DNA of 64,000 nucleotides from an uncultured bacterium (GCA_964508905.1 CAZDVO010000001.1:3977-67976), one strand, 5' to 3'; counted from the stretch's first letter, positions 1,098 to 45,868 are shown. Program-made: numbers and translations. The notes: generated by a model from the sequence alone, not told the origin.

Positions 1098-2367
1098 GCG
1101 CCTTACCGCTTTTTTAATCGTCCTCTTTTTCGGTTGTTCTTTGCTCCCAACACCCGCGGCCGCCTTTGAACCCTCTCCTGCCGACCGCGAGCTCCTGAAC
1201 AAGATCGAAAAAGACACCTTTCAATATTTCACCCGCTTCTCGGACAAGCTCACGGGGCTGACCAAGGATTCTTCCCGAACAGGCTCTCCTTCCTCGGTCG
1301 CCGCCACGGGATTTGCCCTTGCCGCCTATGCCATTGGGGCTTCGCGCGGCTGGATCTCCGAAGAATTTGCTCAGAAGCGTCTCTTAACAACCCTTCAAAC
1401 CCTCCGCGACAAGGCGGCCCATCAAGAAGGGTTTTTCTATCATTTTCTCGATGTGCGGACCGGGAACAGGGTCTGGGGATCCGAGGCTTCTTCGATCGAT
1501 ACCGCGCTGGCCGTCGCCGGCGCGCTCCTCGCGGCCCAATATTACCCGGGAACCGAGATCGAAAAACTTGCGCACGAGATCTATGAGCGGGTGAACTGGA
1601 AATGGATGATGAACGGTTCTGATTTTATCTGCATGGGTTGGACGCCCGAATCCAAATTCCTTCCTTATTACTGGGATTCCTACAATGAGCTGATGATCCT
1701 CGTCGCGCTCGCCGTGGGGTCCCCGACATTCCCGGTACCTCCCGAAGCATGGGAACGCTGGCTCCGCCCGGAAGGTTCCTATAACACCCGCAAAGTCATT
1801 TATGCTTCGACGGGCGCTCTTTTCACCTACCAATTTTCGCATGCCTACATTGATTTTCGGGATCTTGATGATCGGGGGATCAATTTTTTTGAGAATTCAC
1901 GCGAAGCGACCTTGGCGAACCGGGAATATTCGCTGAGCTTTGCCGCTCAATACCGAGGCTACACGGAGTCTTCGTGGGGGCTCTCCTCCTCGGTCGGCCC
2001 CGGCGGGTACAAGGCCTACGGCGGCAAGCCCGGCGGCGGCCTCCATGACGGCACGATCGCTCCCTACGCCACGCTTTCATCGATCGTCTTCACCCCGGAA
2101 TTGACGACCCAGGCCGCCCGGTTTTTCTATGACCATTATCAGGAAAAACTTTACGGAAAGTTCGGCTTTAAAGACGCGTTCAATCTGGATAAGGGCTGGT
2201 GGGCGGACGAATATCTCGGCATCGATCAGGGGATCACGCTCTTGATGTTCGAGAACTATCTCAACGGCGAGAACGTCTGGAAGAAATTCAGGGAACTTCC
2301 GGCGATCAAAAGGTGGATCGAGCTTACGGGTCTCAACTCGCGATCCGCTTCCAACCCCAAGGTTTAA
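1089..2367 (+). CDS. Lipoprotein, glucoamylase-like (alpha/alpha)6 glycoside hydrolase of the DUF3131/PF10091 type; candidate GH144-like beta-1,2-glucanase
   Basis: Lipoprotein signal MSKRLTAFLIVLFFGCSLL. The C-terminal motifs KFGFKDAFNLDKGWWADEYLGIDQGITLLMFENYLNG match the same family as the C-terminus of the 713-aa protein at 43727-45868. Translationally coupled to the HAMP protein. Confidence 0.55.
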
Positions 2368-2615
2368 TCTTTGGATTTCCTGAGCAACCGGATCGCGAGC
2401 TGCATCGCAGCTTCCTCGATCATTTCCCGCGTCAGGTAAGTGCCTTTTTTGATCTCTTCTTTGATCTCGCGGACGCGCCCCAGATTGGGCTCCGCTTCGG
2501 TAGGGATAAGGCGAAGATATTTCCGGACCTCCTCGCGATCTTTGTCGGCGATCGTTCTCGCGCTCGGGGCCTGGATCCTGAATTTAGGTCTTTTATGTTC
2601 TGCCACGCTTTGCAT
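2364..2615 (-). CDS. flgM: Anti-sigma-28 factor FlgM
   Basis: The 83-aa protein ends ...GRVREIKEEIKKGTYLTREMIEEAAMQLAIRLL, which matches the sigma-28-binding C-terminus of FlgM. It lies directly downstream of fliA and has a sigma-28-type promoter upstream. Confidence 0.65.
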   Translation of the reverse strand: MQSVAEHKRPKFRIQAPSARTIADKDREEVRKYLRLIPTEAEPNLGRVREIKEEIKKGTYLTREMIEEAAMQLAIRLLRKSKD

Positions 2616-2691
2616 TCTTCCTGCCTTTAAGCCACTTGCGGCCGTTTTGGGATAAAACAGTTACACGGCTTCTTTCGCTGTGGCTCTCTTA

Positions 2692-2718
2692 ATATCGACG
2701 CAGCGTGACAAAACTTGA
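2692..2718 (-). promoter_or_regulatory. Sigma-28 (FliA)-type promoter upstream of flgM
   Basis: The minus strand reads TCAAGTTT-N11-GTCGATAT, against the TAAAGTTT-N11-GCCGATAA consensus. It sits about 75 bp upstream of the flgM start. Confidence 0.5.
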
Positions 2719-2766
2719 ATATTTATACCGATCCTTCAAAAATCTTCCGAAAACCTCCTCAACGGC

Positions 2767-3546
2767 CTAGGCGTCCAGCGTCAAATGCCCGGCGCGGCGC
2801 ATCAGGTGCCCGCGAAGCCTCGTGACCACCTTCGTGTGGATCTGACAAACCCGAGACTCGGAAACGTCCAGGATCTCGCCGATCTCACGCAGGGTCAGAT
2901 TCTCGTAGTAATAAAGGACCACAACGAGCTTCTCCTTTTCGGGAAGCTGGTCAATGGCATCCGCCAAAAGCTCCTTGACCTCGCCTTGGTGGACATAATT
3001 AAACTGATCCGTAATGAGCGAATCTTCGACGGTCTGAAGACGGGAGATAGGCTTATTACCGTCATCGTTCTGCCACACCTCATCCAGCGAGAGGAATGTC
3101 GTGGAATTCAGATCGCTATAGATCGAGTGAAGGTCGTCCGTCGAGATCTTGAGGGCCTTCGCGAGTTCCTCTTCCGTCGCCAGGCGCCCGTTCTTCTCCT
3201 CGAGTTCTTTGCATTTACGATCGATCTCCCGCGCGCGCTTGCGGAGAAGCCGCGGCGCCCAGTCGAGTTTACGCAGTTCATCCATGATCGAACCCCGGAT
3301 ACGGGACACCGCGTAGGTCTCGAACTTATTGCCCTGCGAGACATCATATTTGTTGATCGCATCAAAAAGCCCCAGGATGCCGTAGCTGACGAGATCATTG
3401 AACTCGACATTGGGAGGCAACCCGATCGCCACGCGACCGGCCACATACTTCACCAGATACAGGTATTTCTTCACGATCTCTTCACGCAAAGGGAGGCTCT
3501 TCGTCCGCTTGTACTTTTTCCACATCTTGATCTCATCTTCGTGCAT
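2767..3546 (-). CDS. fliA: RNA polymerase sigma factor FliA/WhiG (sigma-28 family)
   Basis: The 259-aa protein contains sigma-70 regions 2, 3 and 4 (...YLYLVKYVAGRVAIGLP...DLVSYGILGLFDAINKYD...ETYAVSRIRGSIMDELRKLDW...LTLREIGEILDVSESRVCQIHTKVVTRLR). The antisense 308-aa ORF at 2785..3711(+) is spurious. Confidence 0.8.
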   Translation of the reverse strand: MHEDEIKMWKKYKRTKSLPLREEIVKKYLYLVKYVAGRVAIGLPPNVEFNDLVSYGILGLFDAINKYDVSQGNKFETYAVSRIRGSIMDELRKLDWAPRLLRKRAREIDRKCKELEEKNGRLATEEELAKALKISTDDLHSIYSDLNSTTFLSLDEVWQNDDGNKPISRLQTVEDSLITDQFNYVHQGEVKELLADAIDQLPEKEKLVVVLYYYENLTLREIGEILDVSESRVCQIHTKVVTRLRGHLMRRAGHLTLDA

Positions 3547-3585
3547 GGGGGGTCTCCTTTTCGCCTTGGTCAGCCCAAGCGCCCG

Positions 3586-3828
3586 TCATTTCGGGCTCTC
3601 CTGCTGTTCAAGGATTTTTTTAATTTGGATCAATGTATAATTCTTTGCCTGCAAGATCTTGATCTGCTCCAACCGATCGAACACGGATTCATCATAAAGC
3701 CGGTGACCTGAGATCGTTCGCCGGGCCTCGTGGATCAGCCCCGCCACGGTATAGTTATGAAGCGTCTGCCGGGAAAGACTGGTGTACTGCATCACTTCCC
3801 CGATCTTATAGAGTTTTTCGCGTTTCAT
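3586..3828 (-). CDS. Short MerR-family HTH transcriptional regulator
   Basis: KIGEVMQYTSLSRQTLHNYTVAGLI...SGHRLYDESVFDRLEQIKILQAKNYTLIQIK is a MerR N-terminal HTH. Only 80 aa. Its start overlaps the stop of the upstream gene in ATGA fashion. Confidence 0.55.
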   Translation of the reverse strand: MKREKLYKIGEVMQYTSLSRQTLHNYTVAGLIHEARRTISGHRLYDESVFDRLEQIKILQAKNYTLIQIKKILEQQESPK

Positions 3829-4511
3829 AGCGATTCGCTCCTTGTCTTTTCTTTGTGGGAAAGGATCCTTTGCAGGATGGCAAGGGCCTTCGGATCTTCC
3901 GGTTCGAGCATCAGGACCTTTTCCGCGGTAAATCGCGCCTGGCCGAATTGCCCGCGCGTAGCAAGATCTTCCGCCTGGTTACGATACTGCTCCAGGCGAT
4001 CCGAGATCTCTTCCTCGTACATTTTATGAATGAAAAGAGTGTCGGCCTTTCCCTCTTTAAGGGCTTTGGCCTTGATCTCGTCGATCAGATCGGAAGCCAC
4101 GGTATTATCCGCATCATAGAGGAACACCTTCTCCGCGGCAAAAAGGGCTAGGTCATACTGATTGGCGGCATAAAGCGTCCGGCTGCGCTCAAGCCACGTC
4201 CGGATCGCGTCCTGCTTGTCATCCCCGTTCATCTCTTCGATCGTTTGAGGAAGAAGATGCTCGCGCTGACGCTCGATCTCCTTGTCGAGGATATCGGCCA
4301 TGAGTTGCGACGCTTCGGGATTTTCCGGATCCTGTTCGAGGGCTTGCTCGGCAGAACGGCGGGCGTTGTAATATTCGCGGGACTCGTAATATTTTTTTGC
4401 CTGGACCATCGGCTCTTCTTTTTTCTTCTCTCCCAGTCCGAGAAAAGCCTCGGCCCCCTGGATATTCCCGAGAACCATTACTGTGAGTGTCATGATCGTT
4501 ATCAATCTCAT
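3825..4511 (-). CDS. Secreted TPR-like repeat protein (hypothetical)
   Basis: Signal peptide MRLITIMTLTVMVLGNIQGAEA, followed by helical repeats rich in A, L, E and Y. Translationally coupled to the MerR gene. Confidence 0.45.
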   Translation of the reverse strand: MRLITIMTLTVMVLGNIQGAEAFLGLGEKKKEEPMVQAKKYYESREYYNARRSAEQALEQDPENPEASQLMADILDKEIERQREHLLPQTIEEMNGDDKQDAIRTWLERSRTLYAANQYDLALFAAEKVFLYDADNTVASDLIDEIKAKALKEGKADTLFIHKMYEEEISDRLEQYRNQAEDLATRGQFGQARFTAEKVLMLEPEDPKALAILQRILSHKEKTRSESL

Positions 4512-4741
4512 AGTTTATAAAATGTAAATTACACTTTATAGATTACAATCTATAACTTTTTTCTGCCGCGTCAATACAAAAAGTAAAACTTTTTTAATAA
4601 TACACAACTAATAGGGCCTATTTAAAATGATAAATGCTATATATAGTTATTTTTTTAATATTATTTTTTAGGAAAAATGAAGAAAAGACGATAATTTGAG
4701 GGCAGAGGAAGAACCGGAGATGAACAACCCGGGAGGAAAAA

Positions 4742-4951
4742 ATGACGCTCTACGAGAAGTTATTCGATCTGAAATACAGGCAGGGCATTCCGACCCATGA
4801 ACTCGCGCAACGATTCCCCCAGCATATTGATCGCGTGAGCGAGGTCGCTCTTCTGGATATTCCGGAGCATACTTTGCGGGAAGTGGTTCAAGAGCAAAAG
4901 ATGTTCGAGCGGCTGATCAGCCTTAAAAAGTACTTTCAAAAAAAGAACTGA
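4742..4951 (+). CDS. Small hypothetical protein (69 aa)
   Basis: Strong Shine-Dalgarno GGGAGG five nt before the ATG, with an AT-rich promoter-like region (4500-4740) upstream. A fully overlapping TTG-start antisense ORF (4760..4969) makes the strand call uncertain. Confidence 0.3.
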   Translation: MTLYEKLFDLKYRQGIPTHELAQRFPQHIDRVSEVALLDIPEHTLREVVQEQKMFERLISLKKYFQKKN

Positions 4952-4978
4952 ACGGAGGCGACCGAACAACAGGCAGGA

Positions 4979-6034
4979 CTACTTCTCGGCGAAGATCCCC
5001 ATCTTCCGGAATTTCTGATACCGCAACTCCGGTAATTCCTTGCGCGGGATCTTTTTTAGTTCTTCCAACGCATCATTCACGGTCTTACGCACATTTTCCG
5101 CCGTTGCGTTGAAATCACGATGAGCGCCACCAAGAGGTTCCGGGATCACGCCATCGATCACTCCGAGCCCAACAAGGTCCGGTCCCGTCAGCTTCAAAGC
5201 TGTCGCGGCGTCCGGCGCGCGTGTCGGTTCCTTCCAAAGAATGGCCGCGCACCCTTCCGGTGAGATCACGGAGTAATAAGCATTCTCCATCACGAAGATC
5301 TTGTCCCCCACGCCGATCCCCAATGCGCCGCCGCTCCCGCCTTCGCCGATCACGATACAAATGATCGGCGTCTTGAGTTCGCCCATCGCCCGCAAGTTAT
5401 AGGCGATCGCTTCGGCCTGGCCGCGCTCTTCGGCTCCGATCCCGGGATAAGCTCCGGGGGTATCGATGAAACAGAGGATCGGAAGATTGTGTTTCGCCGC
5501 AAGCTCCATCACCCTCATGGCCTTGCGATAACCTTCAGGATGCGCGCTCCCGAAACTGCGCATCAGATTTTCTTTCGTGTCGCGTCCTTTTTGGTGCCCG
5601 ATAATGCAGATCGGCTCGCGTCCTTCCCATTTCGCGATCCCGGTCACGATCGCCCGGTCATCGCTAAAGCGTCGATCCCCGTGGATCTCCAGGAAATCGG
5701 TCGTCAGATAATTCACATAGTCGAGCGTGTAGGGACGAAGAGGGTGCCTCGCCACCTGGACCCGTTGCCAGGGCGTCAGATGATCAAAGATCTCCTGAAT
5801 CGCCTTCTCGAGCTTTTTCTCCGCGCTCTTGATCTCTCCCGAAAGATCGATGCCCTCGTGGCTGATCTTGCGCAGTTCGTTAATCTTCTTTTCCATCTCA
5901 ACGACAGGCCGCTCGAAAGACAGACAGGCGTCAAAAATATCCCGTGTCCCGAGCTTGATCTTTTCCTTCGCGATGACCGGCGCGACAGGCTCGCTGTGAA
6001 CGATCTTTTTCTTTTTGGCTGTCTTTTTTTTCAT
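4979..6034 (-). CDS. accA: Acetyl-CoA carboxylase carboxyltransferase alpha subunit
   Basis: ...LTPWQRVQVARHPLRPYTLDY...IDTPGAYPGIGAEERGQAEAIA...GEGGSGGALGIGVGDKIFVMENAYYSVISPEGCAAILWK... It has an unusual Lys-rich N-terminal extension of about 85 aa. Confidence 0.9.
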   Translation of the reverse strand: MKKKTAKKKKIVHSEPVAPVIAKEKIKLGTRDIFDACLSFERPVVEMEKKINELRKISHEGIDLSGEIKSAEKKLEKAIQEIFDHLTPWQRVQVARHPLRPYTLDYVNYLTTDFLEIHGDRRFSDDRAIVTGIAKWEGREPICIIGHQKGRDTKENLMRSFGSAHPEGYRKAMRVMELAAKHNLPILCFIDTPGAYPGIGAEERGQAEAIAYNLRAMGELKTPIICIVIGEGGSGGALGIGVGDKIFVMENAYYSVISPEGCAAILWKEPTRAPDAATALKLTGPDLVGLGVIDGVIPEPLGGAHRDFNATAENVRKTVNDALEELKKIPRKELPELRYQKFRKMGIFAEK

Positions 6035-13889: not shown

Positions 13890-13940
13890 AAAAAGGCTGA
13901 TCTTGCTTTGGTTCGCAAGATCAGCCCTTCCCGTAAAAAG
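13890..13940 (-). terminator. Rho-independent terminator for the minus-strand secreted-protein gene, in the gap between convergent genes
   Basis: Stem GGCTGATCTTGC / GCAAGATCAGCC (13896-13927) with an 8-nt loop, followed on the minus strand by TTTTTGTTTTTT. Confidence 0.6.
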
Positions 13941-24686: not shown

Positions 24687-25340
24687 TCAGGCCGCCTGCA
24701 ACGGAGTGCCGTCATCTGCGACAACGGCCCTCTTGATCCCTGCTTTCGCGAGAGCGAGGAACTTGTACCAAAAACGTTCGATCTCTCTCTGCGTTTGATA
24801 AATGGTCTTCGAATTGTCGATCGTGAAATCCGCCTTTTGCGCCTTCAGGGTCTCCGCCATCTGCGCCTGCTCGCGCGACCGGATCTCCTTGACCGAAAAA
24901 TGCTTGGACTGAAGACGCTTCAGCTTGATCGCGGAGTTACACGTCACGACCAGCACCTTGTCGCACAGCTTTTCAAATCCCGCCTCGAAAAGAAGCGGCA
25001 CTTCCACGATCACGACGCGGCTGGTGGATCCTTCGACCTTTTCCCGGATCCTCTCATAAACGTAAGGATGAATGACCTTCTCCAGCTCCTTACGCCGTTT
25101 GGCGTCCGAGAAGACCACCTCGGCGATCTTCTCGCGTTCCATCTTCTTGCCGCCGGGATGAAGCGCTTCCGGAAAAAGCTCGATGACCGCGTCAAAGACC
25201 GGGCTCCCCTTTTTCATCGAAGCGTGCGCGATATCATCAGCATCGATCACTTCCGCGCCCAGATTCTTGAACCGCTGGGCCACGGAACTTTTCCCGACCC
25301 CGAAGCCACCGGTCAGTCCCACCACTAATCTTTGTACCAT
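24687..25340 (-). CDS. coaE: Dephospho-CoA kinase
   Basis: VVGLTGGFGVGKSSVAQRFKNLGAEVIDADDIAH... Confidence 0.8.
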   Translation of the reverse strand: MVQRLVVGLTGGFGVGKSSVAQRFKNLGAEVIDADDIAHASMKKGSPVFDAVIELFPEALHPGGKKMEREKIAEVVFSDAKRRKELEKVIHPYVYERIREKVEGSTSRVVIVEVPLLFEAGFEKLCDKVLVVTCNSAIKLKRLQSKHFSVKEIRSREQAQMAETLKAQKADFTIDNSKTIYQTQREIERFWYKFLALAKAGIKRAVVADDGTPLQAA

Positions 25341-28150
25341 GTATCCCCCACGGTCACGTCGGCCTTAAGCGGCACGTTCAGGCGATAAGCGCCTTCCATT
25401 TCTTTTTTGACGAGCGCCTGAAGAGCCGGGATCTCGCCTTCCGGCGCGTCGAACACAAGCTCGTCGTGCACCTGCATGATCATCAGGCTCTCGCTCCGCT
25501 CTTCTTCAAGTCGCCGCTGGATCGCGATCATCGCGATCTTGATCAGGTCCGCCGCCGACCCCTGGATCGGGGCGTTGATCGCGGACCGTTCCGCGTACTG
25601 CCGCAGCTGCACGTTGGAAGCGTGGATATTCGGGAAATAAGAACGCCGTCCAAGGATCGTCGTCAAATACCCGTCCTGTTTCGCTTTTTCCTTCTGCGCG
25701 TCGAGGAACGTCTTCACGCCCGCGTACCGCGCGAAATAATTTTTAATGAACCGGTCCGCTTCCGGGATCGACATGTTCAGGTCCTGCGAAAGCCCGTAAC
25801 TCGTCTTGCCGTAGACGATACTGAAATTGATCGTCTTCGCGGCGTTCCGCATCTCGCGGGTCACTTCCTTTTCGCTCACGTCATAAAGCAAGGTCGCCGT
25901 AAACGTATGAATGTCCCGGTCTTCCGCGAACGCCTTCGTCAGGTTCGGGTCGCCCGAAAAATGCGCCAGGATCCTGAGCTCGATCTGCGAATAATCCGCC
26001 GAAAGGATCTTGCCCCAACCTCCATTTTCTTTTCCTAAAAGATTGCTGGGGCTAGCCCCTGCCTGTCCGGCAGGCAGGCCATTAACCTTTGATTCTTCTG
26101 ATGAAGAATGGGACTTCCCCCGTCCCCCGACCCTCGGCCGGGCCACAAAGGCCTTCCGCACCAGACGCCCCATCTCGGTCTTCACCGGGATATTTTGCAA
26201 ATTCGGGTCCGAACTCGAAAGCCGCCCCGTATCCGTGGTCGTCTGATTGAACGACGTATGCACGCAATGCGTTTCCGGGTTCACCATCTCCGGCAACGCG
26301 TCGAGATAGGTCGAACGCAACTTCGCGCGTTCCCGGTATTCCAGGATCTTCCGCGGCAATTCATGCGAGACGGCGAGCTTTTCCAGCACGCTCGCGTCGG
26401 TCGAATATCCGGTCTTGATCTTTTTCAGGGCCGGCAATTTTTTCTGGACGAACAACACATCCGCCAATTGTTTCGGCGAATCGAGATTGAACTCCGTCCC
26501 GGCGTCCGCGTGGATCTCCTTCACCAACGCGTCGATCTCCTTCCCCGCCTTCTCCGACAATTCTTTGAGGAACGGCAGGTCGAGCGCCACGCCATTTTGC
26601 TCGATCGTCGCGATCACACTCGAGAGCGGCAGTTCCACTTCTTCATAAAGTTTCGTCAGCCCGAGCTCTTTAAGCTTCGCGCGAAGCAACGGGACGAGAC
26701 GCATCACACAATCCGCGTCCTCGCAGGCATACGCCGTGATCGTCTCAAGCGGCACCTTGTCCATCGTGATGCTTTTCTTGCCGCTGCCGATCAGGCTTTC
26801 CGTCGTGATCTTCTGGACATTCAGGTATTCGAGCGAAAGATCATCCAGATTGTGATTCCGCTTCACCGGATCGGCCAGATAGCTCGCGAGCATCGTATCG
26901 AACGCGATCCCCGCCAACCGCACGCCGTGGCGCGCCATTACGATCGCGTCGTACTTGATATTCTGTCCGTATTTCGCGGTCCCGGCATCTTCCAGGACCG
27001 GCCGGACCGCCTTCAAGACCTCGTCGCAAGGCAACCCCGGCCCTTGATGCGCCGGGAGCGAGACCGGCACGTAATAAGCCGTCCAAGGTTCCCAACAAAA
27101 ACTCATCCCCACAAGCGCGGCCCGCATCGGATCGACCGAGGTCGTTTCCGTATCAAAACTGAACGCCTTCGCCTTACGCAATTCCGCGACCAGGGCTTTT
27201 AACTCACCATCATTCTGAACGGCCTTGTACTGCCGCTCCCGCGATTCCTTCTCCCGGACCGTCGTCACCGTGGCGCTTTTCATCAACCCGCGGAATTCAT
27301 ACCGCTTGAAGAATTCCAAAAGCGCTTCCCCGTCCGGCTCCGCCACCCGGATCTTCTCCCAATCGGCCTCAACGGGAACGTCCGTATCGATCGTCGCGAG
27401 CTTTTGGGACAGCTTCAGATCTTCCAGGTTCTCCCGGAGCTTTTGCCGCTGTTTCTCCGACGGCACTTCGTCCAGTCGCGCGATCAGGCTCTCGACCGAA
27501 CCGAACTCCAGCATCAGCTTGATCGCCGTTTTTTCGCCGATCCCCGGCACGCCCGGGATATTGTCCGAAGCGTCGCCCATCAGCGCGAGAATGTCCACGA
27601 CCTTCTCGGGCCCCAGCCCGCCAAAGCGTTCCTTTACCCCGTCGCTGTCATAGACCCGGTTCTCTTTGTGCGGCTGAAGGATCTTGATCTTTTCGTTCAC
27701 GAGCTGAAAAGCGTCCTTGTCCCCCGTGATAATGAAGACCCGGTGGCCTTCTTTTTCTCCGCGCCGGGCCAGCGTGCCGATCACATCGTCGGCTTCGTAC
27801 CCCGCTTTTTCAAAGATCGCGATATTCGAGATCCTGCAAAATTCCTTGATCGGCTCGATCTGGCTCACTAGCTCGTCCGGCATCGGTTTGCGATGCGCCT
27901 TGTAATCCTTGTACTGCTCGTGCCGGAACGTCGGTTCCTTGCGGTCAAAACACACCGCCAGATATTCCGGCTTCTGCTCTTCCAGGATCTTCCGCAGCAT
28001 CACCACGAACCCGTAGATCGCGTTCGTCGGCTCTCCCCGGGAATTGGTCAGATTCGGGATCGCGTAAAAAGCGCGGTAACAGAGCGAATGCCCGTCGATA
28101 AGGAACAGTTTTTCCCCTGGTGGGTTTTCACTCGGGGTCTTTTTTGTCAT
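25325..28150 (-). CDS. polA: DNA polymerase I, carrying an in-frame low-complexity insert next to motif A
   Basis: 5'-3' exonuclease, 3'-5' exonuclease and polymerase domains (...DYSQIELRILAHF...; ...QVHDELVFD...). An insert of about 40 aa (RVGGRGKSHSSSEESKVNGLPAGQAGASPSNLLGKENGGWG) sits immediately before DYSQIELR. Confidence 0.9.
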   Translation of the reverse strand: MTKKTPSENPPGEKLFLIDGHSLCYRAFYAIPNLTNSRGEPTNAIYGFVVMLRKILEEQKPEYLAVCFDRKEPTFRHEQYKDYKAHRKPMPDELVSQIEPIKEFCRISNIAIFEKAGYEADDVIGTLARRGEKEGHRVFIITGDKDAFQLVNEKIKILQPHKENRVYDSDGVKERFGGLGPEKVVDILALMGDASDNIPGVPGIGEKTAIKLMLEFGSVESLIARLDEVPSEKQRQKLRENLEDLKLSQKLATIDTDVPVEADWEKIRVAEPDGEALLEFFKRYEFRGLMKSATVTTVREKESRERQYKAVQNDGELKALVAELRKAKAFSFDTETTSVDPMRAALVGMSFCWEPWTAYYVPVSLPAHQGPGLPCDEVLKAVRPVLEDAGTAKYGQNIKYDAIVMARHGVRLAGIAFDTMLASYLADPVKRNHNLDDLSLEYLNVQKITTESLIGSGKKSITMDKVPLETITAYACEDADCVMRLVPLLRAKLKELGLTKLYEEVELPLSSVIATIEQNGVALDLPFLKELSEKAGKEIDALVKEIHADAGTEFNLDSPKQLADVLFVQKKLPALKKIKTGYSTDASVLEKLAVSHELPRKILEYRERAKLRSTYLDALPEMVNPETHCVHTSFNQTTTDTGRLSSSDPNLQNIPVKTEMGRLVRKAFVARPRVGGRGKSHSSSEESKVNGLPAGQAGASPSNLLGKENGGWGKILSADYSQIELRILAHFSGDPNLTKAFAEDRDIHTFTATLLYDVSEKEVTREMRNAAKTINFSIVYGKTSYGLSQDLNMSIPEADRFIKNYFARYAGVKTFLDAQKEKAKQDGYLTTILGRRSYFPNIHASNVQLRQYAERSAINAPIQGSAADLIKIAMIAIQRRLEEERSESLMIMQVHDELVFDAPEGEIPALQALVKKEMEGAYRLNVPLKADVTVGDTWYKD
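26022..26137. repeat. In-frame insert inside polA built from chained palindromes
   Basis: GGGGCTAGCCCC, then CCTGCCTGTCCGGCAGGCAGG, then GATTCTTCTGATGAAGAATG, are three adjacent perfect or near-perfect palindromes. Together they encode the non-conserved insert in the PolA palm domain. A related palindrome, CCTGCCGACAGGCAGG, occurs intergenically at 28439-28454. Confidence 0.5.
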
Positions 28151-28478
28151 TTTGGATTTCTATCGGGACCGGATCGTTGGTTTTCGTTCGATTTTATGAA
28201 AAATGCACGGAAAGAGTAGAAAGAGGCGACCTAAGAACTGGGATTAAGCTGGAATTTTATCTCTTTTGCGTGGAATTTCGACCGGTCCCGAACCCCGAGA
28301 ACCGCTTTCCGCCTCCGTTCTTCCCGTTTTTCAGAGGAGAAATGGCGCGAAAGCGGGCATAGGATACCCAAGCCCCTGTACCCGGTCAAGTTTTATTTGA
28401 GAGGGCGTGAGTTTTTCCACCCCTCTCACCCTGAGCCTGCCGACAGGCAGGTCGACGGGTCCCTCTGTTTTCCTTCCC

Positions 28479-29564
28479 CTATTTTTTCCCTTTTCCGATG
28501 CCCGGCTGGATTTTGGAAAGCTGAATCGCCAGTTCCCGGGAATCCGCGGCCACTTCGAGCGCCGCTTCATAGCTGATCACGCCGTGGGTATAGAGCTCTT
28601 TGAGGTGGTCATCCAGTGTGATCATGCCATAACGGGTCCCGGTCTGAAGCTCCGAGAGGATCTGATAGGTCTTCCCCTCCCGGATCAGATTGCGGATGGC
28701 CGGCGTCGCGAACATGATCTCGAACGCGGCCACGCGGCCCTTGCCGTCAAGGCGGGGCACCAGCACCTGAGAGATGACCGCGACGAGCGTGGCGGAAAGC
28801 TGAACGCGCACTTGCGGCTGTTGATGCGAGGGAAAAACGTCGATGATGCGGTCCACCGTGCGGGCGGCCCCGGTCGTGTGAAGCGTGGAGAAGACCAAGT
28901 GGCCTGTTTCGGCCGCGCGGATCGCGGATTCCATCGTTGAAAGATCGCGCATCTCCCCGATCAGGATCACGTCGGGGTCCTGGCGCAGGGACTTCACGAT
29001 CGCCTCGGAAAAGCTCGGGACATCCTCGCCCACTTCGCGCTGGGTCATCACGGATTTCTTGTGCTTATGAACGAACTCCACCGGGTCTTCCGCCGTAATG
29101 ATATGCCGGGGGAAATTTTCATTAATGTAATTGAGCATCGTCGCGAGCGTCGTGGTTTTACCGGACCCGGTCGGCCCCGTCACGAGCACCAGCCCCCGCG
29201 GAAGATTCAGCGTTTCGATCATCTGCGGAGGAAGGCCGATATCGTCAAAATTATAGAACTTGGAAGGGAGGAGACGCAGGACCAGCGCGTAATGCCCCTG
29301 CTGTTTGTAGCAGGAGACGCGGAACCGTGCCTTATCCTCGAAGGAGAAACCGAAATCGATCCCGCCGACCTCTTCCACTTTCTTGCGCTGGACCTCGGTG
29401 GTGATCTCCTTGGCGAGGGCCTCAACCTCTTGGTGCGTCAGCGGCTTTTCCCCGATCGAGACCATATCTCCGACCAGGCGATACGTCACGGGCCGGCCCA
29501 CAGTGAGATGGATATCGGAAGCTTCTTTTTCGATCGCGCCAAGCAGGATCTCTTCAATGGCCAT
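28479..29564 (-). CDS. pilT: Type IV pilus retraction ATPase PilT
   Basis: ...LVLVTGPTGSGKTTTLATMLNYIN...ITAEDPVEF...ILIGEMRDLSTMESAIRAAETGHLVFSTLHT... (a PilT/PilU-family hexameric ATPase). Confidence 0.85.
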   Translation of the reverse strand: MAIEEILLGAIEKEASDIHLTVGRPVTYRLVGDMVSIGEKPLTHQEVEALAKEITTEVQRKKVEEVGGIDFGFSFEDKARFRVSCYKQQGHYALVLRLLPSKFYNFDDIGLPPQMIETLNLPRGLVLVTGPTGSGKTTTLATMLNYINENFPRHIITAEDPVEFVHKHKKSVMTQREVGEDVPSFSEAIVKSLRQDPDVILIGEMRDLSTMESAIRAAETGHLVFSTLHTTGAARTVDRIIDVFPSHQQPQVRVQLSATLVAVISQVLVPRLDGKGRVAAFEIMFATPAIRNLIREGKTYQILSELQTGTRYGMITLDDHLKELYTHGVISYEAALEVAADSRELAIQLSKIQPGIGKGKK

Positions 29565-35921: not shown

Positions 35922-36051
35922 TCTATTTTTTTATACCGTATCGGGTATAAAATTCATTGCTGACAATAAATATATACCCTATAAGGTATATATTTAAATT
36001 TAATATACCCTTTAGGGTATATATTAATATTTATTTGATTAAACTATACCC
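35922..36051. promoter_or_regulatory. Array of four 18-bp palindromic operators (TATACC-N6-GGTATA) upstream of hipB
   Basis: tataccgtatcgggtata (35922-35939), tataccctataaggtata (35963-35980), tataccctttagggtata (35993-36010) and tataccctttatggtata (36034-36051), with spacings of 41, 30 and 41 bp. This parallels the four TATCC-N8-GGATA HipB operators in E. coli hipBA. Confidence 0.65.
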
Positions 36052-36073
36052 TTTATGGTATAGTTTTGTTGCT

Positions 36074-43726: not shown

Positions 43727-45868
43727 TTAAAAGAATTTCTCCTGATCGAGCAGTTTTTCGATCTTTTTGCCGACGGGGTCTTTGTGAAAATAATCCTGGA
43801 TCACGCCTTTTTTCAAGTAATTGACGATCGGAACAAAGATCATCCCCTGGTCTAGCGCCAAATACTGGGTGTTTACGCGCTGGCTCGGGAACGTGATCGA
43901 ATCATAAAACCCGTACTCTCCGTAAATGGGAAAGGTCAGGAGTTTCCGGATGTTCTTGATGGCGTCCTTGGGAATGGCATCCAGAGCAAGAAAGGTGACG
44001 TGCGGCGTGATGACGCCGCGGTCCGGATACCCTTTGGCACCGAGTCTTTTAACGCCATATTCCTCGTACCTCCACCGCCGCCCGTCCGCCGTCGAAGCCG
44101 GAGAAATGCCCCAAACGGGGTATTTTTTATCCTTGAGAGCGAAATCCCGGTGTAGCTCGGCCACGATCTTGTCGTTCTCCCCGAGGCTTTTGGGGGCATA
44201 TTTCTTTTCATTGATCACGAGCGTCGGCATCAGGAACTCAAAAAGCGACCCGCCCCAGCTTGGCACGAATTTCTTGCCGCCCTCCTTATAATATCCCTGA
44301 AAATAGCTGACCCCCTCCCGTTCCACCATTTTCCCCTCAGGTTTCTGGGTCTGCCAATCCCACGCGTCAGGAGCCGTGCGATAGAGATACCACCAGTGAT
44401 CTTGGGAGAGATCCCCTTTGCCGATCCCGTAAAGGCTCGCGATACGCGCTTCGGTCACAAGCATCCCGTAGTGATAGGGTGTCGGGCGGTCTTCTTCCAC
44501 GTCGTAGCCCACCCGAAGCTGGTTGGTGTCGGGATCAAGGAATTCCTGAAAATGGAACCCATCGAGGATCGCGGTCGCGTCCTTCGCGATATCCCCCGGG
44601 AAAGCCTGCCGCGTCACCACCAACGCCACCGCCAGCCAAGCGCTGTCCACGCTTGAAACGAAACGGCGGGTTTCCGCCAAGCGGGTCGTTTCATAGAAGT
44701 TAAAGAAAAAACCTTTCCACGCCTTCAGCTTCTTAAGGACGGCGAGAATGTCCTTGGCCCGCGTTTCCGCCTGGGCGGCGTTGAGGATCCCAAGTTCCCG
44801 GGCCCCGACCGTCGCCAAAAGGTCCATAGCGATATTCGTGGGAGAAGTGTAGGCGGCCGCGAGGGGGAAATCGCCGATCTTGTAGTGGTCGACCACGAGA
44901 TGGCTTTTTTTGTCGGCGGCATTTTCAAAATACTTCCAGGTGTCGCGGGCGATCTTCATCAGAAGATCCTTGTCGTTCCCGGTCGCCAACAGTTCCTTGC
45001 GGCGGGGCTCATCGAACACCGCCTGAGGAAATCCTTTCATGTTGTCGACTACGCTCTCGAACCCGACCTCGGGAGGCCCGAAGAAAGCGACCTCATCCAG
45101 GCCGATCTTCCCCGCCATGTTTTTGTCTTTCGCGAGCACGATGAACGCCAGTGAGCGCAACTGGTCCAGATCCACTCCGCGGAAAACCGAGAGGGGCAGG
45201 ATCGCGTCATTCCATCCCGTGCTTTCCCGGCAGGCTTCCGTCATGTCCTGAGCCACGGTCTTACCCGCCCAGTCGCTCAGCGCCACGCGCAGCCGCCCTT
45301 TGAACGAAGTCTCGGCCGGGACTTGGCATTTCACCGCGAGATATTGCGCCGCGCTCATGTCCAGTTTCTCAAGAGAGGTCCGCGCTTCAGCTTGTCCCTT
45401 CGCCTTCAAGTTGTACCGAAGCCAGAGCGACGAACCGGACTTTACGCCGCGGGCGTCTTCCCTTTTGATCTCCAGGACCAGGGCCTTTGTTTTTTCCTGG
45501 TCCACCCCCCAAGCCCCTCCAAGCTGGTTCTTGAGCCCTTTGCCGCTGAAATCATCGATCACCTTGAAACGGGAGGATGTCCGCAGTGATTTGCTCCCGG
45601 GCACGAGATCATAAATGCGTCCGATGTCGAGCGGCGGCGCTTCTCCGGCAGGGCCGATCTGAGCTACGGGAATATTTTTTTCGGAAGCTTCCGTGGGGCC
45701 GATCTTGGAGCCTGAAGCTTCGGTGGTTTTACTGGAGAAAGATCTTGCTTTGGCTGCCGCGAATCCCTGAGCGGTGATGCCCACAAGAAATACGCTGGCA
45801 ACCAAAAATGAAAAAGCGTTCCTCAGGTTCTGTTTCAAACCTGAGGAACGCTTGGAAAGATCGGCCAT
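43727..45868 (-). CDS. Membrane-anchored or secreted glucoamylase-like protein (DUF3131/PF10091; GH144-type beta-1,2-glucanase candidate) with an extra N-terminal domain
   Basis: N-terminal hydrophobic segment. The C-terminal half (...YGEYGFYDSITF...YLALDQGMIFVPIVNYL...) matches the same family as the 1089-2367 protein. Confidence 0.55.
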   Translation of the reverse strand: MADLSKRSSGLKQNLRNAFSFLVASVFLVGITAQGFAAAKARSFSSKTTEASGSKIGPTEASEKNIPVAQIGPAGEAPPLDIGRIYDLVPGSKSLRTSSRFKVIDDFSGKGLKNQLGGAWGVDQEKTKALVLEIKREDARGVKSGSSLWLRYNLKAKGQAEARTSLEKLDMSAAQYLAVKCQVPAETSFKGRLRVALSDWAGKTVAQDMTEACRESTGWNDAILPLSVFRGVDLDQLRSLAFIVLAKDKNMAGKIGLDEVAFFGPPEVGFESVVDNMKGFPQAVFDEPRRKELLATGNDKDLLMKIARDTWKYFENAADKKSHLVVDHYKIGDFPLAAAYTSPTNIAMDLLATVGARELGILNAAQAETRAKDILAVLKKLKAWKGFFFNFYETTRLAETRRFVSSVDSAWLAVALVVTRQAFPGDIAKDATAILDGFHFQEFLDPDTNQLRVGYDVEEDRPTPYHYGMLVTEARIASLYGIGKGDLSQDHWWYLYRTAPDAWDWQTQKPEGKMVEREGVSYFQGYYKEGGKKFVPSWGGSLFEFLMPTLVINEKKYAPKSLGENDKIVAELHRDFALKDKKYPVWGISPASTADGRRWRYEEYGVKRLGAKGYPDRGVITPHVTFLALDAIPKDAIKNIRKLLTFPIYGEYGFYDSITFPSQRVNTQYLALDQGMIFVPIVNYLKKGVIQDYFHKDPVGKKIEKLLDQEKFF

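Follow-up and report, generated by a model that had tools for sequence, protein, structure and literature searches.

An in-frame insert in an Omnitrophota polA gene and the palindromic repeats related to it

In a 64,000-nucleotide stretch of DNA from an uncultured bacterium (GCA_964508905.1 CAZDVO010000001.1:3977-67976; the whole 64-kb stretch is called the window below), the polA gene carries an in-frame insert rich in palindromes, just before the sequence encoding motif A of DNA polymerase I. This locus raises the question of whether such an insert belongs to the polymerase or is a selfish repeat that enters genes without breaking their reading frame, as Rickettsia palindromic elements (RPEs) do and as an earlier note on this DNA had suggested. 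The selfish reading was supported by the finding of the same 84-bp sequence in frame in many unrelated genes, between unrelated flanks. The polA insert is very probably selfish repeat DNA, made of two nested, non-autonomous palindromic elements housed in a tolerated loop. The outer element, named OPE-1 here, measures 84 bp, of which 80 bp form a two-hairpin core and the other 4 bp are a direct repeat, in most cases CAAG; the inner one, called HP below, is a 21-bp perfect hairpin. An RPE-like reading is thus supported, with a new family in a new phylum.

Anatomy of the polA insert

The product of the host gene (Table 1) contains the full set of Pfam domains (PF02739, PF01367, PF01612, PF22619 and PF00476), its closest named matches are DNA polymerases I of Candidatus Omnitrophota, and its open reading frame (ORF) includes VRKAFVARPRVGGRGKSHSSSEESKVNGLPAGQAGASPSNLLGKENGGWGKILSADYSQIELR. 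PolA proteins were compared in an alignment of 120 homologues. Most of those from Omnitrophota (904 amino acids) have ARPRGKGKGKILSADY at the insert point and are contiguous there, as the earlier note had it, but this did not hold for four relatives. P0002, P0007 and P0009, which are 80-82% identical to the window PolA, contain a related 28-residue insert that lacks the middle palindrome; P0014 contains a 5-residue remnant, and the corresponding DNA (P0014/L004) retains only about the last 27 nt. The window PolA has seven further residues, GLPAGQA, beyond the 28 of its relatives. The insert is missing from most Omnitrophota PolA proteins and patchy on the PolA tree, and is therefore no conserved domain.

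The limits of the insert were set by DNA alignment with the orthologues L001, L002 and L006 and with the empty site of L007. The gained DNA is somewhat shorter than, and shifted from, the span 26022-26137 first given for it (Table 1), and the residues RVGGRGK, previously counted as part of the insert, are part of PRGKGKGK, a basic loop native to the PolA of Omnitrophota. The gain is the sum of the 80-nt OPE-1 core, the 21-nt HP and a 4-nt copy of the direct repeat. Compared with the empty L007 site, in which GGGAAG is directly followed by ATCC, filled sites show an exact 84-nt gain. This 84-bp insertion is common to the window polA and to L001, L002, L003 and L006, whose OPE-1 copies all lack HP; in the window polA, the gain that brought in HP comprises 21 bp, CCTGCCTGCCGGACAGGCAGG, placed cleanly between AATGG and GGCTAG, both flanks being intact. 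An nhmmer search of the window with the OPE-1 profile matched 26115..26009 (72 bits, E = 4e-20).

Table 1. Features of the polA locus (positions in the window)
Feature	Position	Strand	Remarks
polA host gene	25325..28150	-	941-aa DNA polymerase I; 5'-3' exonuclease, 3'-5' exonuclease-like and polymerase domains
Total DNA gained relative to element-free orthologues	26009..26113	-	105 nt; residues 680-714, SHSSSEESKVNGLPAGQAGASPSNLLGKENGGWGK; just before motif A
Flanking direct repeat, 5' copy	26114..26117	-	GAAG on gene strand; CAAG in most other copies
Flanking direct repeat, 3' copy	26009..26012	-	CAAG on gene strand; putative target-site duplication of 4 bp, or else the final 4 nt of the element
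Hairpin A, 5' arm	26107..26115	-	AGTCCCATT
Hairpin A, 3' arm, part 1	26079..26083	-	AATGG; split by HP from the rest of the arm
Hairpin A, 3' arm, part 2	26054..26057	-	GGCT
HP, nested perfect hairpin	26058..26078	-	21 bp; CCTGCCTG-CCGGA-CAGGCAGG on gene strand; read (G)LPAGQA(G)
Small hairpin inside the hairpin A loop	26092..26109	-	ATTCTTC-ATCA-GAAGAAT
Hairpin B, 5' arm	26045..26052	-	GCCCCAGC; family consensus GTCCTGGC
Hairpin B, 3' arm	26012..26019	-	GTTGGGGC; family consensus GCCAGGGC
Degenerate HP-like hairpin	28436..28451	+	CCTGCC-GACA-GGCAGG; spacer between polA and the upstream T2SSE-type ATPase gene

Three palindromes had been noticed in the insert, GGGGCTAGCCCC, CCTGCCTGTCCGGCAGGCAGG (8-bp perfect stem, 5-nt loop; the HP of Table 1) and ATTCTTCTGATGAAGAAT. 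All are present, but they do not form three independent back-to-back units: the insert is built of two long-range hairpins, A and B, and of the nested 21-bp hairpin. GGGGCTAGCCCC and the small inner stem ATTCTTC..GAAGAAT are not conserved features, since both are imperfect in the other polA copies and, by eye, in the rest of the family alignment, where the inner stem is perfect only in the window copy. Folding of the insert region was better than that of all 200 dinucleotide shuffles (RNA z = -3.1, DNA z = -3.9). Perfect hairpins numbered 38 in the window, overlapping registers counted, compared with 6-23 in Markov shuffles, and this census revealed no repeated family from the window alone. 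The core CCTGCC-N(1-8)-GGCAGG was matched twice in the window, compared with 0.02 matches expected; CCTGCC-N-GGCAGG was not found in seven related Omnitrophota loci. An intergenic near-copy of the middle palindrome does exist, 3 bases away from the position first reported; it is a degenerate relative of HP only, and not of the whole insert, having CCTGCCTGTC and GGCAGGC in common with HP on the opposite strand.

Compared with solved structures, 43 residues of the window PolA replace a 5-residue turn of the Bacillus large fragment, located between the RQAFV strand and the strand that carries the motif A aspartate. An AlphaFold2 model built from 61 homologues had a mean predicted local distance difference test score (pLDDT) of 86.4; in this model, residues 676-710 were below 50 and without secondary structure, while the rest of PolA was confident. 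The surface loop before motif A that had been predicted is thus disordered in the model, and the insert is best read as a disordered, tolerated surface loop adjoining the active site, which would be neutral for PolA function.

At least four other, mutually unrelated inserts fill the same loop in P0106, P0120, P0025 and P0059; the loop therefore tolerates expansion, and these alignments mark it as an apparent general hot spot of length variation in Omnitrophota PolA. The more distant P0059 polA (L158) contains three in-frame, strongly palindromic inserts, at residues ~367, 683 and 885; one of them, with a perfect stem of 24 bp (AATAAAGGGGACAGTCCCCTTTTT/AAAAGGGGACTGTCCCCTTTATT), reads DSPLFVEKGTVPFI, and another is a two-hairpin insert at the same site before motif A. 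P0025 has TGEARLLGEAARP at the motif A site. N-terminal PolA extensions with a GEPRLxxQAG motif were observed in P0014, P0015, P0017, P0021, P0026, P0027 and P0030; in L159 (1001-1150) this motif is encoded by a small hairpin, GGCGAGCCTCGCC. The GEPRLxxQAG and P0025 inserts may represent another hairpin family.

OPE-1 and OPE-2 in other genes

A metagenome collection was scanned with an exact internal 22-mer of OPE-1, CARAAGAATYAAAGGTYAATGG, which is free of polA flank. The scan returned 20 loci, four of which are polA genes and 16 of which have flanks unrelated to polA. Pfam-confirmed hosts are UvrA, TrpE/PabB, three different GT9 glycosyltransferases, a Fer4 (4Fe-4S) protein, CMD and Zn_ribbon_8. 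UvrA carries OPE-1 at four different positions and the 4Fe-4S family, by eye, at two (L139 and L144). A peptide profile searched against 1.84 billion representative proteins gave only six credible matches, and the family is therefore real but narrow; these matches add two hosts assigned by eye, a histidine kinase that seems to have the insertion in its ATPase domain and a fragment of an SF1-type helicase, and also include a secreted protein and small ORFs. A search with the insert peptide alone in a word-indexed protein database, an index ill-suited to short low-complexity queries, gave one candidate and no match. Altogether, OPE-1 DNA was found in at least 12 unrelated protein families, which have no common pathway and in which the insertion positions are unrelated.

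The two-copy UvrA has a 100% identical counterpart at NCBI, where the name given is Candidatus Omnitrophota, and the closest UvrA homologues are 922 to 1080 amino acids long. Screening of 50 UvrA clusters identified 12 with OPE-1 motifs (all at 76% identity or more), eight with a second element, OPE-2, and two with HP. OPE-1 is dispersed through the genomes of one Omnitrophota clade, the phylum being assigned from the names of the PolA and UvrA hosts.

All 24 OPE-1 copies lie in long ORFs, in one orientation and in phase 0, where they read PHSPSKELKVNGASPGNLSGKENGGQGK; all are multiples of three and free of stops. The consensus, YCCCATTCTCCATCARAAGAATYAAAGGTYAATGGGRCTAGYCCTGGCAACCTTTYAGGAAAAGAAAATGGAGGCCAGGR followed by CAAG, has stops in four of its six frames. 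The two open ones are the 28-codon peptide frame and its -1 counterpart (LPWPPFSFPERLPGL...), which is used in none of the 24 copies. As read, the peptide is hydrophilic and rich in Gly, Ser, Pro and Lys. Every well-conserved copy recovered is inside a protein-coding gene; nhmmer detected diverged OPE-1 copies between called genes in L004/L005 and an OPE-2-like copy upstream of polA in L159. Pairwise differences between OPE-1 copies amount to 0.15, 0.11 and 0.11 at codon positions 1, 2 and 3, respectively; they are evenly distributed, and the peptide is therefore not under selection.

In OPE-1, a 9-bp stem closes a loop of 23 nt in hairpin A, and an 8-bp stem one of 25 nt in hairpin B, both loops being purine-rich. 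The helix of hairpin A pairs alignment columns 3-11 with columns 35-43 (94% of cells paired in 17 copies). For the two-hairpin model as a whole, 95.5% of cells are paired, compared with 21-50% when the 3' partners are slid, and RNAalifold independently predicts the same two helices.

OPE-2 is also 84 bp long and reads GPNxIQFPxxGNWGxPDYHNGKENKSQD; it forms two hairpins, one of which has a loop like that of hairpin B. It is nested in OPE-1 in L138, L141 (a polA gene), L146, L152 and L155, with the end repeats ATGG/ATGG and TAG/TAG, and OPE-2-like copies are also present in RnfC of L007. The uvrA gene of L146 (metagenome contig Ga0156526_1174, ~1760-5081) carries OPE-1 at two internal sites, in one case with HP and two OPE-2 units nested inside it; the gene's 5' end has in addition an OPE-1 fragment, which contains an HP variant at the same OPE-1 position as HP. 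An OPE-1::HP subfamily therefore exists, since HP is at an identical OPE-1 position in the L146 uvrA, with a variant in a third fragment. Nesting of OPE-2, together with the palindromic inserts of P0059, shows that in-frame hairpin inserts are recurrent in Omnitrophota. In the uvrA gene of L150 (~760-930), OPE-1 was observed to be interrupted by a longer insert, ...SMSLRGARKGDAAISLYKSEIASPPARNDM..., with the inverted repeat GCGGCAATCTC...GAGATTGCTTCGC, which may be yet another nested repeat type.

The 21-bp hairpin HP

One genome per species was scanned with the pattern CCTGCCTGTC-N(0-1)-GGCAGGC, which gave at least 120 stretches; the window genome is not among the matches listed, to which the counts and hosts given below refer. 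About 93 of them carry the complete hairpin, though the pattern did not demand it; at least 70 are exact 21-mers and at least 23 exact 20-mers (loop TCGG), with unrelated flanks. The identical 21-mer was found in Bacteroidota, Patescibacteria, Omnitrophota, Planctomycetota, Chloroflexota, Nitrospirota and a Woesearchaeote, the Bacteroidota including cultured Flavobacteriaceae and the cultured Aureibaculum, Psychroserpens, Algibacter and Maribacter. No target duplication is associated with HP; a pyrimidine follows at +1 in 65 of 70 copies and T is rare at -1. Inverted repeats of 6 bp or more flank HP about twice as frequently as they do in re-paired controls. Viral contigs contained only 10 matching stretches, and a blastn comparison of HP with plasmids was uninformative, most matches being partial (18-20 nt) and in Proteobacteria.

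Inside long ORFs, where 32 of the 70 21-mers lie, 19 of the 32 are read LPAGQAG, in the frame used in polA. Most copies of the 20-nt form are outside long ORFs, and in two loci deletion of the 20-mer restores a long ORF. Pfam-confirmed hosts are FolD, MetRS, Mfd, 3-hydroxyacyl-CoA dehydrogenase, a histidine kinase (two copies) and an RsmI-like methylase. In the MetRS genes of two Bacteroidota (L067 and L100), HP occupies the same codon position, just before FIGKDN, and is identical at 21 of 21 bases, while the surrounding coding DNA is heavily diverged. Further HP variants occur within 8 kb of many loci, L013 having six copies, with variants such as CCTGCCCGTCCGGCAGGCGGG and CCTGCCTCGCCGGCAGGCAGG. 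HP was also seen nested in the loop of another HP (L036, 4869-4911) and in direct tandem (L082, 326-367). These arrangements point to a family that is diverse and, in some Bacteroidota, locally dense.

An adapter or library artefact was considered for HP and rejected: HP occurs in isolates as well as in metagenome-assembled genomes produced by many projects and assemblers, it has been inherited at orthologous sites and its reading frame is biased. We found no published description of the HP sequence or of the LPAGQAG peptide. We put forward, as a tentative and rather doubtful proposal, that CCTGCCTG-TCCGG-CAGGCAGG, followed by a pyrimidine, may be an undescribed ultra-small mobile sequence, and likewise that OPE-1 and OPE-2 may be the first elements effectively confined to coding sequence. 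To our knowledge, 21 nt is smaller than any characterised transposable element. If the proposal is true, there would be a widespread hairpin-inserting activity, or a repeated horizontal spread of a 21-nt unit, and research on mobile DNA would gain a new object in a 21-bp hairpin that crosses phyla, if this is confirmed.

Movement and maintenance of the elements

CAAG ends the 5' flank at 11 of 14 distinct OPE-1 sites, which thus have CAAG on both sides; in L142, CCTG forms both the last 4 nt of the element and the 5' flank, L156 shows a partial match and L157 has no direct repeat. The ends of the element, YCCCATTCTCC and YCCTGGCCTCC (reverse complement of the 3' end), match by eye at only 7 of 11 positions. 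A flanking direct repeat is a probable feature of OPE-1, and this pattern fits either a 4-bp target-site duplication (80 + 4 = 84 nt, 28 codons) or a preference for CAAG targets; the latter could be the case because of L157 and of the weak terminal repeats.

We propose that OPE-1 and HP were moved as DNA by an enzyme supplied in trans. [quoted passage not shown] For HP, the lack of a duplication and the hairpin shape suggest a single-strand mechanism like that of repetitive extragenic palindromes (REPs), by which HP would have entered the 3' arm of the first stem of OPE-1 without duplication. Selection would then purge insertions that break the frame or land in structured parts of proteins, leaving survivors in permissive loops; in PolA, a tight turn between two palm strands before motif A would have become a loop of ~40 disordered residues. 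What keeps the copies uniform would not be the function of the peptide; candidate causes are repeated gain at the same small set of permissive sites, gene conversion from one copy to another, correction templated by the hairpins and selection on nucleic-acid structure. Copies would also be lost by deletion between short repeats. Deletions do occur, as the remnants in L004 (polA) and L149 (uvrA, 12 nt of OPE-2) indicate.

Several observations weigh against this explanation. Neither blastn-short with the insert nor nhmmer with the OPE-1 profile detected a second copy within the window, and the copy number of OPE-1 per genome may be low. No well-conserved intergenic copy was recovered, which is unexpected for random transposition followed by selection, though ascertainment may account for part of this, the search having required an exact 22-mer. 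No transposase or autonomous partner was found: about 1.3 Mb of loci contained neither a longer element bounded by OPE-1 termini nor an insertion sequence with the same ends. A search for Y1/RAYT ORFs near HP copies, with IS608 TnpA and the E. coli RAYT as queries, gave no credible phmmer match among 6473 ORFs (~1 Mb); the power of this search is low because it covers only 8 kb around each HP copy. The missing direct repeat of L157 and the weak terminal repeats have to be counted here as well, and translation of the insert is presumed from frame conservation. Finally, orthologous OPE-1 copies differ by 4-17% whereas flanking third codon positions differ by 31-46%: the element is 3-5 times more conserved than flanking synonymous sites, while vertically inherited neutral DNA should diverge at least as much as they do. 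This low divergence is not due to ascertainment, as the four polA copies were found by protein homology and not by DNA pattern.

This last result bears on an alternative that we regard as plausible, if somewhat short of probable, and in which the insert is still a repeat element: a homing-like or recombinational spread, by which OPE-1 would repeatedly reach the same polA and uvrA sites, so that the polA copies are young. It could proceed by strong site specificity; alternatively, alleles that bear the element, or other copies of it, could serve as partners in homologous recombination or gene conversion. In a simple neighbour-joining distance tree of PolA, which carries no support values, element-bearing proteins (P0001, P0002, P0007 and P0009, with the remnant in P0014) are polyphyletic, and each has an element-free PolA as its sister. 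Variable columns 20, 27, 34 and 41 segregate across loci and among orthologous uvrA copies. HP lies at an identical OPE-1 position in the window polA and twice in L146, and not in the orthologous polA genes, as OPE-1::HP conversion would have it. Against such spread, the L004 and L149 remnants are losses, and repeated loss could give the patchiness; short direct repeats around a hairpin are classic substrates for precise deletion. Polyphyletic presence at one site, together with a conservation that exceeds that of host synonymous sites, argues for active homogenisation or repeated site-specific gain. Taken together, these data indicate turnover at a few permissive sites by gain and loss, plus sequence homogenisation.

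Conservation far above synonymous sites without codon-position bias would also be expected of a domesticated structured module, whose hairpins act in RNA or DNA (in mRNA stability or processing, interdomain translational pausing or as a protein-binding cruciform). The stems are kept, and in the window copy two pairs of hairpin B are fully compensated (columns 49/81 and 50/80, U-A to C-G and G-C to A-U); T-G oppositions in both stems would be G-U pairs in the sense RNA, and hairpin modules A, B and D have loop motifs (GGAAAAGAAAAT) in common while their stems are different and complementary. We nevertheless consider this explanation improbable. Overall covariation is no higher than in shuffles (0.090, against a shuffled mean of 0.089), and is weak because most pairs never vary; hairpin-templated correction, known from quasi-palindromes, gives compensated changes without selection. 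Rfam had no match in 25800-28700 at E up to 1, the hosts have no common pathway and their insertion positions are unrelated, and three copies have the 3' arm of hairpin A interrupted by HP although the element has not been lost.

It is very unlikely that the insert goes untranslated, by programmed translational bypass or removal from the mRNA, as happens with byp elements in the mitochondria of yeasts. In Magnusiomyces mitochondria, coding regions do contain GC-rich hairpin inserts that are bypassed, but conservation of the frame would be needless if the insert were skipped, and all 24 OPE-1 copies are stop-free, in-phase multiples of three; likewise, the 21-nt HP is in frame in ORFs and most 20-nt copies lie outside long ORFs. 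An insert-spanning peptide of the window PolA is, for example, VNGLPAGQAGASPSNLLGK.

A lineage-specific functional loop or domain of PolA, arisen in place and non-mobile, is hardly credible: although the insert is always at the same PolA site, the same 84-bp DNA is present in the other protein families, most close PolA relatives lack it, codon positions show no sign of peptide selection and the segment is disordered in the model. The source is a metagenome-assembled genome and some library artefacts create palindromes, but a chimeric join or hairpin artefact can be dismissed with near certainty, as the exact window PolA is also in NCBI and Logan sources, the insert recurs in independent NCBI, JGI and Logan assemblies, four further assemblies, made in different projects, have OPE-1 at this polA site, the junction of OPE-1 with HP is seen again in the independent metagenome L146, and frame and reading-frame biases indicate that selection acted on these sequences. 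An intein or intron was rejected on size and on the absence of catalytic features.

The preferred reading, two nested mobile palindromic elements, can be set beside known systems. RPEs insert in frame in Rickettsia genes (Ogata et al. 2000, as summarised in PMC10969869). OPE-1 is likewise a dispersed palindromic repeat, in frame in unrelated functional genes, with one conserved peptide per family, insertions where the fold tolerates them, and DNA replication and repair genes among its hosts. It differs in its host (Omnitrophota, not Rickettsiales), its unit (84 bp, 28 codons, compared with about 100-150 bp), its modular two-hairpin build with nested elements and a 4-bp direct repeat on most copies, a site occupancy that is patchy among close relatives, and an element divergence far below that of the host gene. 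OPE-1 is set apart from RPEs by host and unit size, and not by sequence comparison with RPE-1 to RPE-10. The polA insert thus behaves like an RPE without belonging to the RPE family, and it consists of two nested elements of different families.

The earlier note had considered a palindromic element in DNA polymerase I to be unusual; there is precedent, as DNA polymerase I is, with UvrABCD and RecBCD, among the proteins with intragenic REPs (Di Nocera et al. 2013; PMC3733652). HP has the size and shape of a REP (21 nt, 8-bp stem, 5-nt loop), a high local copy number in some genomes and, like REPs, a presence inside genes, DNA repair genes included. In contrast to the families of PMC3733652, HP has no GTAG or CGTC tag and is only followed by a pyrimidine; it is not predominantly extragenic, as the proportion in long ORFs indicates, and its 21-mer is common to several phyla, whereas REP families are usually species- or genus-specific.

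Prokaryotic MITEs with in-frame insertions include the Coxiella QMITEs (PMC5896051) and intragenic ERIC sequences (reviewed in PMC10969869). OPE-1 resembles MITEs in being small, non-autonomous and multi-copy, with a short direct repeat and an internal ORF fused to the host gene; in contrast, its terminal repeats are weak and its well-conserved copies are all coding, in one frame, whereas most MITEs are mainly intergenic. We know of no cognate insertion sequence for OPE-1. Mitochondrial GC clusters, double-hairpin elements of fungi and byp elements are very short, GC-rich, spread in the genome and able to enter coding regions. All of these are organellar. Ribosomes skip byp elements, in contrast to OPE-1 and HP, in which the frame is kept and translation is presumed.

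We found no publication linking Omnitrophota with palindromic, MITE or repeat elements of this kind. In-frame palindromic selfish DNA in proteins, described mainly in Rickettsia with scattered REP and MITE cases, is now encountered in an uncultivated, free-living or episymbiotic phylum. The family is unusually clean, with exact 28-codon modules, element-in-element nesting, up to several modules per UvrA and a recurrent loop by the PolA active site. It lets one see, as in a natural experiment, which loops of proteins can take up 28-70 additional residues, and the length variation caused by such elements will be a source of confusion in metagenomic orthology, domain annotation and structure prediction.

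Other palindromes were observed in the window. Four perfect ones within 140 bp (35929-36066) have a TATACC...GGTATA core in common, for example TAAATATATACC-CTATAA-GGTATATATTTA, and look like a cluster of operators or binding sites. Two isolated perfect hairpins are unrelated to OPE-1 or HP: one at 45814-45853, with a 16-bp stem (AAGCGTTCCTCAGGTT-CTGTTTCA-AACCTGAGGAACGCTT), and one at 13895-13926, with a 12-bp stem (GGCTGATCTTGC...GCAAGATCAGCC).

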